Source: Clostridia bacterium
Lineage (GTDB): Bacteria; Bacillota; Clostridia; Christensenellales; Aristaeellaceae
Assembly: GCA_045599485.1 (NCBI GenBank)
Contig: JAZRWA010000081.1
Coordinates: forward strand, 1 to 24,371
Direction of reading: 5' to 3'
Length of the DNA: 24,371 nucleotides
This document shows, one piece after another, positions 5,694 to 22,033 of this stretch. Made by a program: the position numbers and the translations under genes. The stretch's first letter is position 1; every line of letters starts with the position of its first letter. The notes under the pieces are model-generated. The model saw nothing but the letters and a program-made list of their open reading frames with translations. It ran no database searches and was not told the DNA's origin.

Positions 5694-7982
5694 TTAATCG
5701 CGGCCGAACGCGCGGCAAAGCGCGGCAGACAGCTTCTTTCCTGGCGGCAGCAGGGCCTGCAGCGCCTCAAAGCAGCGGATGGCGGATTGCACCTCGGAGG
5801 GCTGCACCGGCACGCGCCCGTAGCGGTGACGGCTGACGGCAGCGGCGACCGCGGTCAGGTCGGGACCAAGCGCCGCTTCGACCCGGCGGGCAAACTCCAG
5901 GGGCGTTTCTCCGCCCTGCGGCGTGAAGCCCAGACGGCGGCAGCTGCCGAGGATGGCAGTGTAGAGCAGCATCAGTGCGCCTTCGGCGGTCTTTTGCCGG
6001 CGGGCCCGGGCGACCGGGTCGGTGTCACGGATGCGCCTGGCCAAAAGCAGAAGCAGCAGGATCAGCAAAAGCAGCAGCAGCCACAACAGCCCCGATGGCC
6101 GGTCGGGACCGGAAGGGTCATCCTTCGGCGGCTCGGGCTCGGGCGAGGGCGACGGCTCTCCCTGCGGCTCGGGCGAGGGGGTGGGTGTGTTTTCGGGTAC
6201 CTGCTGCGGCTCGGGTGTGGGCGTTTGCTGCGGTTCCGCGGAAGGCGAGGGCGAGGGCGACGGGGAAGGGGAGGGGGACGGTGAGGGCGCGGCAGGGTTC
6301 TCGGGCGGACGGTTGTTTCCGCGGCTCTCCTCATGCCCGGGTGTGGCGTCAAAGACGACCCAGCCCACGCCGTTCAGATACACCTCGGTCCACGCGTGGG
6401 CGTTTTCGCCGGTCAGCACGCCGTTTTCCGCGCTGTAATAGCCCTCCACATAGCGGGCGGGCAGCCCTGCCATGCGGCAAAGCACCGTCATGGCGGAGGC
6501 AAAGTATGTGCAGTAGCCCTTCTGCTAACGCAGCAGGAACCAGGCGACAAAATCGGCATCGGGCAGCGGGGTGGACACCTCCAGGGAATAAGGATAGGTC
6601 GTGCGCAGATAGTCGCGCAGTGCCACTGCCTTTTGCCACGGCCCCGCACAGCCCGCCGTGACCCGGTTGGCGATGGCGTAAATTTCGGGCTGCATGTGCG
6701 CCGGAATGGACAGGTAGTGGGCGCGCACCTCGGCATAATGCTCATCCTGCGCGCCGGCGTTGAGCTGCGCCAGCTCCTCCACCGCGGCGTCATCGGAGGT
6801 GAGCAGGACGGCGGTCAGGGTGTAGGTGTCGCCCGCCTTGAGGTCGCGGGTCAGGAACAGCTCGGTGCCTGTGTTGAAATAGGCGATCATATCCTCCCCG
6901 AGCGACAGCGAGCGCAGGCGCTGCGGCACAAACAGCGTGCTGGTACGGTCGGCCAGCATCGTGACGGTCAGCGTGTTTTCGGGAAGCGTGCCCTCCATGG
7001 GCAGGCTCATGTCAAACAGGCTGCTGCGAAGATTGCGGGAGGTGGGCAGGTGCCAGGCGTAGCGGGCGGCGGACAGCGAATCATACCACATCTGCCCGGT
7101 GTAACGGTCCATCACCGTGCCGCGCAGATAGATGGCGCTTTCGGCACCGCTGACGGACAGGACAGCGCCCTCGGCAGGCTGCGGCCGCCCGCCCAGATGC
7201 TCGCCGGTCAGCGGCATCCAACCCTCGCTTTCCAGTGAAAAGCGTGTGCGCTCGCCCTGAAAATAAAAGTAATCCGACAGCTTTTTGACCAGCTCATCCG
7301 CCTTGTCGGACAGCTGATCGTTTTTGGTGCCCTCGGGCGGGGCGATCAGACAGGCGCAGAGGAGCAGCAGCACCGCCGCTGGCAAAAGCCGCAGCAGGTG
7401 CCGGGCCGTGGCGCGCTCTTTGGGATGGCTGAACGCTGCCGCCAGCAGCAGACCGGGCAGGGCGGGCAGAAGCAGAAGCAGCGATTCGTGCAGACCGGTC
7501 ACCCACGCCACCGCCGCCGAAAGACCGGTCAGCAGGCAGGGCAGAAAGAAGGATTCGGCACTGATGAACAGCAGGGATACGGCGGACAAAAACACGGCAA
7601 ACAGCACGGTCAGCGGCGCGGCGTATACCAGCACCATGCCGCCGTCGCCATGCACAAGCAGCGCCAGCGCGCGGAGGGCACTGACCAGCATGGGGTACAG
7701 CCCGCGCCTCTGCAGCCCCATCAACACCTCATAACCAAGGAAGAGAACGGGCGGAACAAAGCGCAGCAGGGCGATGCGGCGCGGCAGCGCCTGGCTGAGA
7801 TAAAACAGCAGCGTCAGCGCGTGAAAGATCGTGACCGAAAGGACAAACAGCCTTTGCTGATGAAATCCGGGCAGCGACAGCAGCGGCAGACCAACGCCCG
7901 TGGTGATGAGCAGCGAAGCGAGCAGGACGGTCAATTGCGCACCGCGCAGGCGGCGAAGAACGGCGTCAAGCAGGCGTGACAT
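5694..7982 (-). CDS. Transglutaminase-like membrane protein (TgpA-like, with a DUF4129-like tail) carrying one in-frame TAG at 6525-6527
   Basis: ORFs 7982..6525 and 6491..5694 are in the same frame, separated only by TAG. The joined reading gives [42 protein letters not shown]...AHAWTEVYL...VVFDATPG, which is the Cys-His-Asp transglutaminase core. There is a multi-TM N-terminus, a PS/PE-rich linker and a Leu-rich TM. GGAGG lies 8 nt before ATG 7982. Stop is TAA. Confidence 0.8.
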
Positions 7983-8001
7983 AACACACCTCCGAACCGC
8001 T

Positions 8002-9105
8002 CTATAACAGATGCGAAATGCAATCCCGGTCCGCCTCCTCGGGGGAGAAGGTGATCAGGTAAACGCGCACATTGGGCCCCATGCGGCGGATGTCGCGGAC
8101 GGCATCGCTGAGCAGGGCACCAAGGCGTGTGGTAATGATGATGACGGCGCCGACCGATACGGCGGCACGGGCTTCCATGAGCAGTACCCGTCCGAAATCC
8201 TGCGGGGAGGAAAAGGTAAGGTGGGCAAGCAGGGTGCTCAGCCCTTCGGTGCTGCCCGAGGGGGCGGCGCGGAACTCGGCCACGTGCTCATCATAAAAGG
8301 GCATGCGCACGGGCGATTGATGGGACAGCTGGATCTCCGCGGCGGACAGCGCCGTCTCGGTCAGCACATCGCGCAAACACAGCGCGCTCTCGCCCTCTGC
8401 CGCGGGGGCGGAGCAGTCGGTCAGGATGAGGGTGCCGGGCGGGGCCGGCGTTTCAAAGCTGCGCACGATGAGCTCGCCGCGGCAGGCGCTCAGCTTCCAG
8501 TGGATGCGCTTGAGGGGGTCGCCGCTGCGCCAGGCGCGGGTGCTGTCGGGGTAGGAGGCATCCTCGGCGGCGGTGAGCCCGCGGGCGGAACCGTCGTCAC
8601 TGCCGGCATATTCCAGGTTCATGGCTTCAAAGGGGCGGGGCAGCACCAGCATTTCTCCGCTTGCGGCCGCAAGGCGGACACGGCAGCGGAACAGGTGCAA
8701 GGGGTCGCTGCAGGCGGCGGAAAGGATCGACAGGCGGCGGCAGCCGACATGGTCGCCGGGCAGGTCGATGGTCAGCTCGGGGCGGCGGGCAGAGCGGCAG
8801 ACAAAGGCGTGCAGAAAGCGCTGCTCCCCGAAGCGGCAATCCAGCGCCCAGCTCATGGGCGTCAGGTAGGAATGGTGATAAAAGCGCACTGCCGGCGAAA
8901 AGCTGCCGCCGCGGAGGACGCGCTGTTCGGCAGGATCGACCTCGCACCGCAGCGTCAGGCGCAGCAGCAGCAGACCCAGTCCGTTGTACAAAAGCGTCAG
9001 CACGGCAAAAACGGCCGCGATATAAAAGAATCGCGCGCCGGAGGCCAGCCCGAACAAAAGTGACATCAGGCCGGTCAGCAGGAAGAAAAAGCCGCGGGCC
9101 GTCAT
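8002..9105 (-). CDS. DUF58-family protein (MoxR-operon partner)
   Basis: 367 aa with two N-terminal TM helices and ...DSTRAWRSGDPLKRIHWKLSA..., typical of DUF58. ATG 9105 overlaps the MoxR TGA (ATGA). It ends at TAG 8002-8004. If TAG is read, it ends at TGA 7966-7968. Confidence 0.75.
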   Translation of the reverse strand: MTARGFFFLLTGLMSLLFGLASGARFFYIAAVFAVLTLLYNGLGLLLLRLTLRCEVDPAEQRVLRGGSFSPAVRFYHHSYLTPMSWALDCRFGEQRFLHAFVCRSARRPELTIDLPGDHVGCRRLSILSAACSDPLHLFRCRVRLAAASGEMLVLPRPFEAMNLEYAGSDDGSARGLTAAEDASYPDSTRAWRSGDPLKRIHWKLSACRGELIVRSFETPAPPGTLILTDCSAPAAEGESALCLRDVLTETALSAAEIQLSHQSPVRMPFYDEHVAEFRAAPSGSTEGLSTLLAHLTFSSPQDFGRVLLMEARAAVSVGAVIIITTRLGALLSDAVRDIRRMGPNVRVYLITFSPEEADRDCISHLL

Positions 9106-20641: not shown

Positions 20642-20764
20642 GACTCAAAAAATCTCCTTTAATAACGGAATCCTGACACTGTAATTCGACACAGTGCGGC
20701 AAATTCCTGCCAAAATTGGGATATAATCCCCACAAAAAATATAAAATAAGCAAAAACTGACGCG

Positions 20765-22033
20765 TTAAACTCCACTTTCGTCCTGCATCCACAGGGTGCG
20801 GCGGCCTAAAACATCCACCGTCATGATGACGGGATCCCCACGCAGAATGGGCAGGCTGATGGTGGTTTGAAGCTATGGCGTCTGCTTGAGGCGCGCGGCG
20901 GAGGTGTAGACCTGAAAAACGCCGTCCCGGAGGTAGCCGGCGGACCACTGGTCCACCGCGTCGAGCGGGTGCCGGAGGCCGCCGGGCAGCAGCTTTTCGA
21001 TGAGCGCGCGGTCCTCCGCTCCCGGCAGGTAATCGGTCAGGGTGATGCTGTAATAGCCGATGCCGGGCAGCACCGAGGCCTCCATTTTTTCGGGGCGGTC
21101 GGAAAGGGGCGCACGCAGCGCCAGCCCTGTGCCGAGCAGGCGTTTGCGGCTGACCGAGATGGCGGCTTCCCCGCAGTCGATGCCCAGATAGCGGCAGCCG
21201 TTTTCGTGCGCGGCGATGAGCGTGGTGCCCGAGCCGCAGCACAGGTCGGCCACGAGGTCGCCGGGGCGGGTGCAGCAGCGGATGATGCGGTCCAGCAGCG
21301 CGCGGGGCTTTTGCGTATCATAGCCGGTGCGCTGGGGGTCCTTCTGCTGCAGGTGGCTGACATCCATCCACACGTCGTCGGGATAGACGGGCTCATCATC
21401 GTAATAGGTGTAGACCTTGCCGCCCACGCGGATGGTGCGGCAGGCGCGGCCGTTTTCGTCCACCGAGCGCTTCATGTGGTTTTCACGGTTTTCGCCGCGG
21501 GGGATGGGCACGCGGGTGATATCAAAAAACAGATTGCGGGATTTGGCGTAGAACAGGATGACGTCGTGCTTGCGGCTGAAATGCTTTTTGCTGCGGCCGC
21601 CGGACTGGTAGGCCCAGATGATCTCATTGATAAAGTTTTTTTCACCGAAGATCTCGTCGCACAGCAGGCGCGCGTAGGCGTTCATGCGGCTGTCCAGATG
21701 GAGGAAAAGGGCACCGGTATCGCTGAGAAGCAGCTTGGCCTGCTCCAGCAGGGCGCGCAGGAGCGTTAAAAATTCCTCCCGGCTGCTGCCGTGAAAATCG
21801 CCGAAGGCGGGCAGCGTCAGCACAGGGCTGCCTTTTTCCCAGCCCTCGCGGCCGCAGCGCATGCGGAAATGAAACTCCTCCCCGGTAAAGAAGGGGGGAT
21901 CGATATATACGCACTGCGCCTGCCCCTTCCACGGGGTCAGCGAAACAGCGGCGGCGTTGTCCATCAGCAGGATGCCGCCGGGGCCGTCGCTCATGTGCAG
22001 CTCTTTTTGACATTCGGTGCGGTGCCAGGCCAT
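20765..22033 (-). CDS. Beta-class (N6-adenine type, DPPF) DNA methyltransferase with a C-terminal extension, carrying one in-frame TAG at 20873-20875
   Basis: Motif IV is VYIDPPFF, followed by motif I DLCCGSGTTLIAAHENGCRYLGID (PF01555 order). After ..ARLKQTP-TAG the frame stays open for 35 GC-rich codons (LQTTISLPILRGDPVIMTVDVLGRRTLWMQDESGV) to TAA 20765-20767. That is exactly where composition drops to AT-rich intergenic DNA. Confidence 0.75.

Follow-up and report, generated by a model that had tools for sequence, protein, structure and literature searches.

Stop Codons with a Sense Meaning

All known changes of the genetic code in bacteria reassign UGA (Shulgina & Eddy 2021, PMC8629427). 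This codon is read as tryptophan (table 4) or as glycine (table 25) in Mycoplasmatota, in some endosymbionts, in Absconditabacteria/Gracilibacteria and, recently, in Eggerthellaceae. The gTranslate and KACI preprints of 2026 cover tables 4, 11 and 25, some sense-codon changes and the archaeal change of UAG to pyrrolysine (Pyl), and a survey of prfA and prfB in 12,753 genomes met only scattered prfA pseudogenes. In the literature searched up to mid-2026, no report of a bacterial reassignment of UAG to sense was found. To our knowledge, UAG is used as a sense codon only for pyrrolysine, in phages and in eukaryotes. The present work concerns a stretch of 24,371 nucleotides from a Clostridia bacterium (assembly GCA_045599485.1, contig JAZRWA010000081.1, positions 1 to 24,371), here called the window, in which six genes are crossed by in-frame TAG codons. 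It is proposed, with a probability of roughly 0.75, that UAG is not an efficient terminator in this lineage and is translated, most probably as glutamate (Glu).

The locus shares some properties with each of the described systems. As in the bacterial UGA codes, a stop codon would have become a sense codon across the chromosome of a cellular bacterium, the change would be confined to a clade, and it is visible as in-frame stops in conserved genes. Unlike in those codes, the codon is UAG, the release factor concerned would be RF1 rather than RF2, and the residue appears to be Glu. A sense meaning of UAG in a prokaryote is also found in the genome-wide UAG-to-Pyl code of some archaea (Kivenson et al. 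2025, as cited in the gTranslate preprint) and in bacteria that use Pyl facultatively. With such codes, as here, the coding density under table 11 hardly changes, so they are easily missed.

The likeness to gut phages that read TAG as glutamine (Gln; code 15) lies in amber as a sense codon with suppressor tRNAs (here putative), in the gut or animal setting, and in the fact that the TAG-richest gene of the window belongs to a phage family. Code 15 itself, a viral genome in which TAG means Gln, was considered and rejected: the window is a bacterial chromosome with housekeeping genes, and Gln fits only one of eleven TAG sites, namely the eight of the window and three found in relatives. The change of a stop codon to glutamate through a tRNA-Glu with a stop-reading anticodon, which is what we infer here, is known from the UAR-to-Glu codes of peritrich ciliates (table 30) and Blastocrithidia (table 31). 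Those codes are eukaryotic, affect both UAA and UAG and involve changes in eRF1, whereas here only UAG is concerned, and TAA ends 10 of 24 genes of the window. Laboratory amber suppressors and RF1-deleted recoded Escherichia coli demonstrate that UAG can serve as a sense codon in living bacteria whose TAG stops have been removed; these are engineered or single-strain mutants, whereas the lineage described here would be a natural, evolving clade. Kleina et al. (1990, cited in PMC13092985) reportedly built amber suppressors from tRNA-Glu that inserted Glu.

In-Frame TAG Codons in Conserved Genes

The window (24.4 kb, about 60% GC) represents an ordinary piece of a Clostridia chromosome, and its nearest relatives carry the database name "MAG: Clostridia bacterium" (MAG, metagenome-assembled genome). 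Reading frames were set independently by the periodicity of GC content at third codon positions (GC3) and were then checked with Pfam. In this way, 24 genes were defined unambiguously. Pfam supported the frames of ArsR, M18 aminopeptidase, phosphoglycerate mutase, glutamate dehydrogenase, a FAD protein, a HlyD-like protein, SepF, DivIVA, the MoxR-DUF58-transglutaminase operon, MscS, DUF3267, DUF362, an acetyltransferase, a MreB-like protein, the DNA methyltransferase and others; an Rfam search of the window gave no match. Eight in-frame TAGs lie in six of the genes, and domain or family homology runs through each of them:

5694-7982, minus strand: transglutaminase-like membrane protein, 762 codons; TAG at 6525-6527 (codon 486)
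7966-9105, minus strand: DUF58 protein, 379 codons; TAG at 8002-8004 (codon 368), TGA at 7966-7968
9102-10091, minus strand: MoxR AAA+ ATPase; TAG at 9387-9389 (codon 235), between the AAA_3 and AAA_lid_2 domains
15001-15837, plus strand: MscS-type mechanosensitive channel, 278 codons; TAG at 15760-15762 (codon 254), TAA at 15835-15837
16034-16258, plus strand: small AT-rich (31% GC) phage-family gene, 74 codons; TAGs at 16091, 16136 and 16151
20765-22033, minus strand: N6/N4 DNA methyltransferase, 422 codons; TAG at 20873-20875 (codon 387), TAA at 20765-20767

An earlier reading of this DNA from its letters alone (below, the sequence-only reading) had listed these eight TAGs, and all of them are present, in frame and on the strand it gave. 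It had described four conserved genes (transglutaminase, MoxR, MscS and methyltransferase) as each split by a single TAG, and homology indeed continues past the TAG in all four. It had regarded the TAG of the DUF58 gene as a possible terminator. This view had to be given up: the 11 codons after the TAG are conserved and end in TGA, and two relatives (L001 and L003) have GAA at the site, a tail identical in protein sequence and the same TGA, which makes DUF58 a fifth interrupted conserved gene. The three TAGs that it had noticed in the open reading frame (ORF) at 16034-16258 lie in a member of a real family, phrog_7261, which matches the ORF full-length (E=3.4e-7) through all three. The absence of in-frame TAA, in-frame TGA and frameshifts, which it had reported for the conserved genes, holds for all 24 genes of the window. 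As it had also stated, no nucleotide context is common to the TAGs; the base 3' of the codon is C, A, A, G, A, G, T and C.

In the transglutaminase, the Transglut_core domain (residues 436-546, E=2.9e-28) spans the TAG, which stands four codons 5' of the invariant catalytic cysteine in the GYC motif, and DUF4129 follows after it. In MoxR, the AAA_lid_2 domain (Pfam, E=5.5e-26) lies entirely downstream of the TAG; a peptide spanning the site would read VYTAPEIRAYVAQ. The 24-residue tail of MscS after the TAG is conserved across the family, and the 35-residue tail of the methyltransferase is conserved across about 120 homologues. Downstream of the TAGs, the ratio of nonsynonymous to synonymous polymorphism (pN/pS) was 0.21 for MoxR, 0.33 for the transglutaminase, 0.00 for DUF58, 0.17 for the methyltransferase and 0.52 for MscS, all from small samples; for the last two genes, both lineages compared carry the TAG. 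The TAGs sit in functional, conserved genes, at positions for which homologues have a sense codon, usually for Glu, and the downstream frames are intact and conserved.

The Amino Acid Probably Specified by TAG

When each of the eleven TAG sites is compared with the nearest homologue in which the codon is sense, the residues are E, E, E, E, Q, D, E, D, S, E and E, so that nine of them are acidic. Among close relatives, three sites are GAG and one is GAA. TAG thus aligns consistently with one amino acid, Glu. The strongest single site is that of MoxR, where four relatives (L001-L004) have GAG and all 120 of 120 homologues have Glu. The sequence-only reading had held that the amino acid could not be deduced, on the grounds that the aligned positions were variable; with an invariant Glu at this site, it can be inferred. 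At the transglutaminase site, Glu is found in L001 (GAG) and in the outgroup L017, and the family column (E35/T31/S23 in 122 representatives) has Glu as its plurality and in all the nearest sequences. The DUF58 site is Gln in L017. The MscS column is D41/E30/N19/K13. The protein of the phage-family gene is 41% identical to WAK79800.1 of the Flavonifractor phage Chenonceau, in which the residues D, E and D align with the three TAGs. Among the sites of relatives, Glu is the commonest residue (29 of 122) in the family column of a further transglutaminase TAG in L001, and it is present in the closest homologues at the helix-turn-helix (HTH) regulator and Fic sites of L007.

A simple column-likelihood model gave 9.3 nats for Glu, 0.6 for aspartate (Asp) and -5.2 for Gln, which corresponds to an advantage of about 5,500-fold for Glu over Asp, with Gln far behind. 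The mutational origins point in the same direction. GAG>TAG is the commonest origin seen, and it is the only change that would be silent if TAG means Glu. CAG>TAG, which would be both silent and a transition if TAG means Gln and should then dominate, was seen once. Reading TAG as Gln would also require a change from Glu to Gln at a position invariant in 120 homologues, and Gln was rejected as the decoded residue. The sequence-only reading had offered Glu or Gln on chemical grounds; only its first choice stands, since Gln matches one site out of eleven, and the decoded residue is most likely Glu.

Inheritance, Gain and Loss of TAGs among Related Genomes

The TAG of the methyltransferase is common to four relatives from the 90% cluster of this protein (L007, L008, L080 and L081), which come from GCA_024404275.1, two ENA assemblies and one Logan assembly and are about 93-95% identical in DNA; a further ENA assembly (L009) has CAG at the position. 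The TAG of MscS is common to three Logan assemblies (L010-L012) at about 90.5% DNA identity, and another relative (L013) has GAG. Every MscS locus with DNA in hand stops at the same TAA, 24 codons past the TAG site. The effect of table 11 can be seen in the databases, where the window methyltransferase is stored as a product of 386 aa that ends at the TAG (P0121). GCA_024500545.1 encodes an identical 253-aa truncated MscS product (P0245), alongside a full-length MoxR with Glu at the site (P0001).

The TAGs of MoxR, DUF58 and the transglutaminase are specific to the window, and the relatives have GAG, GAA and GAG, respectively. The relatives in turn carry three TAGs of their own: codon 236 of the transglutaminase of L001, which is TCG in the window, codon 277 of a Fic gene of L007 and codon 69 of an HTH regulator of L007. 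Both L007 genes are missing from the window, and their plasmid homologues align through the TAGs. Among these genomes, TAGs are therefore passed on, arise and disappear as ordinary codon variants do. The distribution is that of a clade and not of one assembly: TAG alleles occur in the window, in GCA_024404275.1 and in several ENA and Logan assemblies, and are missing from outgroups at 54-77% protein identity.

The Fic gene of L007 is part of a cassette (L007:1805-3020) flanked by 90-nt direct repeats that are 92% identical. Each repeat contains a hairpin together with an inverted motif, TTTAGGGTGAATTT / AATTCACCCTAAA. No such cassette is present in the window, whose empty site lies at about 22615-22668.

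These comparisons bear on what the sequence-only reading had proposed, namely that the organism decodes or efficiently suppresses UAG. The proposal is supported: TAGs recur in assemblies that are 5-10% diverged, relatives add their own, and TAA, TGA and frameshift lesions are absent. It had named consensus errors as one way in which it might fail, and the finding of the same TAGs in several independent assemblies from different runs speaks against them. Uninterrupted genes in close relatives were another; they are found at some sites, but at others the relatives share TAGs or add new ones.

TAG Usage and Base Composition

TAG density is highest in AT-rich mobile genes. In the host genes, 5 of 7,367 codons are TAG, and in the phage-family gene, 3 of 74 are; its Glu-type codons are GAA (6), GAG (1) and TAG (3). 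The HTH gene of L007 has 42% GC. If TAG means Glu, it is an AT-rich codon for this residue, and AT pressure would be expected to favour it. AT-rich mobile genes resident in the clade may thus have drifted to heavy use of TAG for this reason. Three stops within 74 codons would be surprising under the standard code, given that the gene still aligns over its whole length.

The phage-family gene stands alone in an AT-rich island of about 400 bp (window 15900-16300), with 30-40% GC in a chromosome of 60% GC and no other phage gene nearby. In phages, members of its family adjoin head-morphogenesis or minor-capsid genes. No close relatives of the gene were found in IMG/VR, and no match was found in plasmids.

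Weighing the Alternatives

Several points weigh against the translation of UAG as Glu. Neither the window nor any of the related loci analysed contains a tRNA gene, so the putative decoder has not been seen, and prfA does not lie in the window. At one site, the closest relative has Gln, and at another it has Ser. The ratio of nonsynonymous to synonymous substitution (dN/dS) on the tails has the right sign, but the tails comprise only 11-35 codons, the downstream regions of MoxR and the transglutaminase excepted, and the DUF58 tail overlaps the start of the next gene. Three window-specific TAGs lie in one operon (MoxR-DUF58-transglutaminase), and decay of the operon could give the same pattern.

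The lack of TAG terminators is also less telling than it seems. Of the 24 window genes, 10 end in TAA and 14 in TGA; neither these genes nor their orthologues in close relatives use TAG as a stop. The sequence-only reading had counted the TAA codons correctly, and the TGA codons, which it gave as 12, were recounted as 14. Its statement that no gene unambiguously stops at TAG holds for 24 kb of genome, but it is weaker evidence than was thought. In the outgroup loci L017 (MoxR 77% identical) and L021 (MscS 54% identical), which have no in-frame TAG, 27 genes end in 15 TGA, 12 TAA and no TAG; because TAG stops are absent there without sense TAGs, their absence from the window does not discriminate and is weak evidence taken alone. 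From 27 genes only, the outgroups suggest a scarcity of TAG stops in the wider family that preceded the sense TAGs; this would fit codon capture.

The alternative that survives best is natural amber suppression without a change of the code. An efficient suppressor tRNA, perhaps borne by a prophage, would act beside a functional RF1, readthrough would be partial, and TAG would remain a leaky stop elsewhere. The rarity of TAG in host genes, its polymorphism among close relatives and the phage- or mobile-element-like character of the TAG-rich genes are all in line with this. Nevertheless, TAGs precede essential catalytic parts of the proteins (the transglutaminase cysteine and the MoxR lid), those of MscS and the methyltransferase have been kept across 5-10% DNA divergence, and not one gene in the window or its close relatives ends at TAG. 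Selection should work against a state in which many proteins are permanently truncated in part. Suppression of this kind is considered unlikely.

Still less probable is that the interrupted genes are pseudogenes, that is, that ordinary nonsense mutations, perhaps biased towards G>T / C>A (e.g., by deficient repair of 8-oxoguanine), have hit genes that are being lost or that tolerate truncation at the C-terminus. It is true that G>T or C>A changes account for four of the five events that can be traced to a single step (GAG>TAG three times, TCG>TAG once), that the MscS and methyltransferase TAGs are close to the C-terminus and that truncated products are annotated in databases; the clustering of three TAGs in one operon has been mentioned. 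The odds of such mutations were computed from the codon usage of the window, which gives a TAG probability of 0.58-0.65 per random nonsense mutation. The chance that all events yield TAG is then 0.04-0.07 for six independent host-gene events and 0.003-0.008 for eleven. A G>T-biased spectrum would account for the GAG and TCG origins, but it makes an all-TAG outcome less likely, about 0.01 for six events and 1e-4 for eleven, because GAA>TAA, TAC>TAA and TGC>TGA would then be frequent. Pseudogenes are expected to have mixed lesion types and relaxed constraint downstream, but the lesions here are TAG only, in every gene, and pN/pS past them is below 1. Moreover, diverged lineages share TAGs with intact tails and the same stop, the 74-codon gene with its three TAGs still aligns full-length to its family, and the acidic residues at nine of eleven sites include sites of distant homologues, which a mutational origin cannot explain.

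That these codons stand for pyrrolysine or some other non-canonical residue, as they do in the Firmicutes and archaea that use Pyl, is very improbable. Pyl is the only established sense decoding of UAG in cellular prokaryotes, and some Clostridia have pyl genes (gTranslate preprint). Pyl decoding goes with UAG in methylamine methyltransferases and with a pylTSBCD cluster; unlike in such systems, none of the TAG-bearing genes is a methylamine methyltransferase or is related to methylamine metabolism, no pyl gene or domain was found in the window with Pfam, and the columns aligned with TAG hold Glu or Asp, in one case an invariant Glu, and are not lysine-like. Pyrrolysine was therefore rejected. 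Finally, an error of sequencing or assembly, or contamination by an organism that uses another code, is conceivable in that the window comes from a MAG and errors of single bases do occur in a consensus, but it is effectively refuted, since the same TAGs recur in independent assemblies 5-10% diverged in DNA and the contig has uniform GC3 and syntenic Clostridia housekeeping genes (gdhA, gpmI, SepF, DivIVA and the MreB-like gene).

Proposed Decoding Machinery

That UAG is translated in this clade is regarded as quite probable. A complete reassignment to Glu, with the loss of RF1 that would go with it, is put forward with more reserve. The picture that is favoured, by a modest measure, is that of an uncultured Clostridia clade with 56-60% GC in which UAG would have changed from stop to Glu across the chromosome. 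TAG stops would perhaps have been purged earlier in the wider family, and AT-rich mobile or phage-derived genes would use TAG as a frequent Glu codon. By analogy with known stop-codon reassignments, UAG would be read by a tRNA with a CUA anticodon, and RF1 would be lost or weakened. The decoder probably derives from tRNA-Glu(CUC) by a C36-to-A change, and it would be charged by glutamyl-tRNA synthetase (GluRS). The GluRS of Firmicutes that lack glutaminyl-tRNA synthetase is non-discriminating and tolerant at position 36, where it already accepts two bases. A scarcity of TAG stops in the wider family before the change would be in line with codon capture.

The decoder was sought in metagenomic data. 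A 22-mer pattern for a tRNA-Glu-like CUA anticodon arm had no matches in the JGI metagenomes, and a 17-mer gave 52 metagenome and 3 IMG/VR matches, none of which is a tRNA by ARAGORN; the clade seems to be absent from the JGI data. When GTDB genome contigs were scanned with the MscS protein, the only matches were to Paraburkholderia.

Other Features of the Window and Its Relatives

The HlyD-like protein (11831-13420) contains NNPYQQP(A/V)Q units in its N-terminal part, which are encoded by a 27/54-nt tandem repeat at 11948-12136 of the window. The SepF homologue beside this gene also has a long Pro/Gln-rich N-terminal region. On the minus strand, a long ORF at 22040-22867 begins with an Arg/Pro-rich N-terminal part of 107 codons. 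Relatives have this extension uncalled (168-aa product), and one has a TGA inside it; the real start is therefore probably near 22546, judging from these comparisons.

DNA identity between the window and L003 changes abruptly between adjacent segments, from 87% (7453-12115) to 93% (11957-13780), which suggests recombination within the clade. In the outgroup L018 (7381-9173), an SBP_bac_5 solute-binding gene is split into overlapping ORFs of 238 aa and 360 aa that end in TAA and TGA; it is intact (633 aa) in L017. The split looks like an ordinary frameshift unrelated to TAG.

Implications for the Clade and Its Genetic Code

Some consequences concern the databases. At least two proteins of the clade are stored truncated (the 386-aa methyltransferase and the 253-aa MscS), and table 11 would cut the other TAG-bearing genes likewise. 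If the proposed reading is true, the clade would provide the first case of a cellular bacterium whose code assigns amber to a canonical amino acid, and a natural bacterial UAG-to-Glu code would fill a gap among the known reassignments. Such a lineage might also offer a natural RF1-independent chassis, or a tRNA/synthetase logic for genetic code engineering. For the clade itself, the case would be a young one, still polymorphic, with TAG arising from GAG, and it would bear on the debate between codon capture and an ambiguous intermediate. The altered code would also form a barrier for phages and mobile elements that enter or leave the clade.

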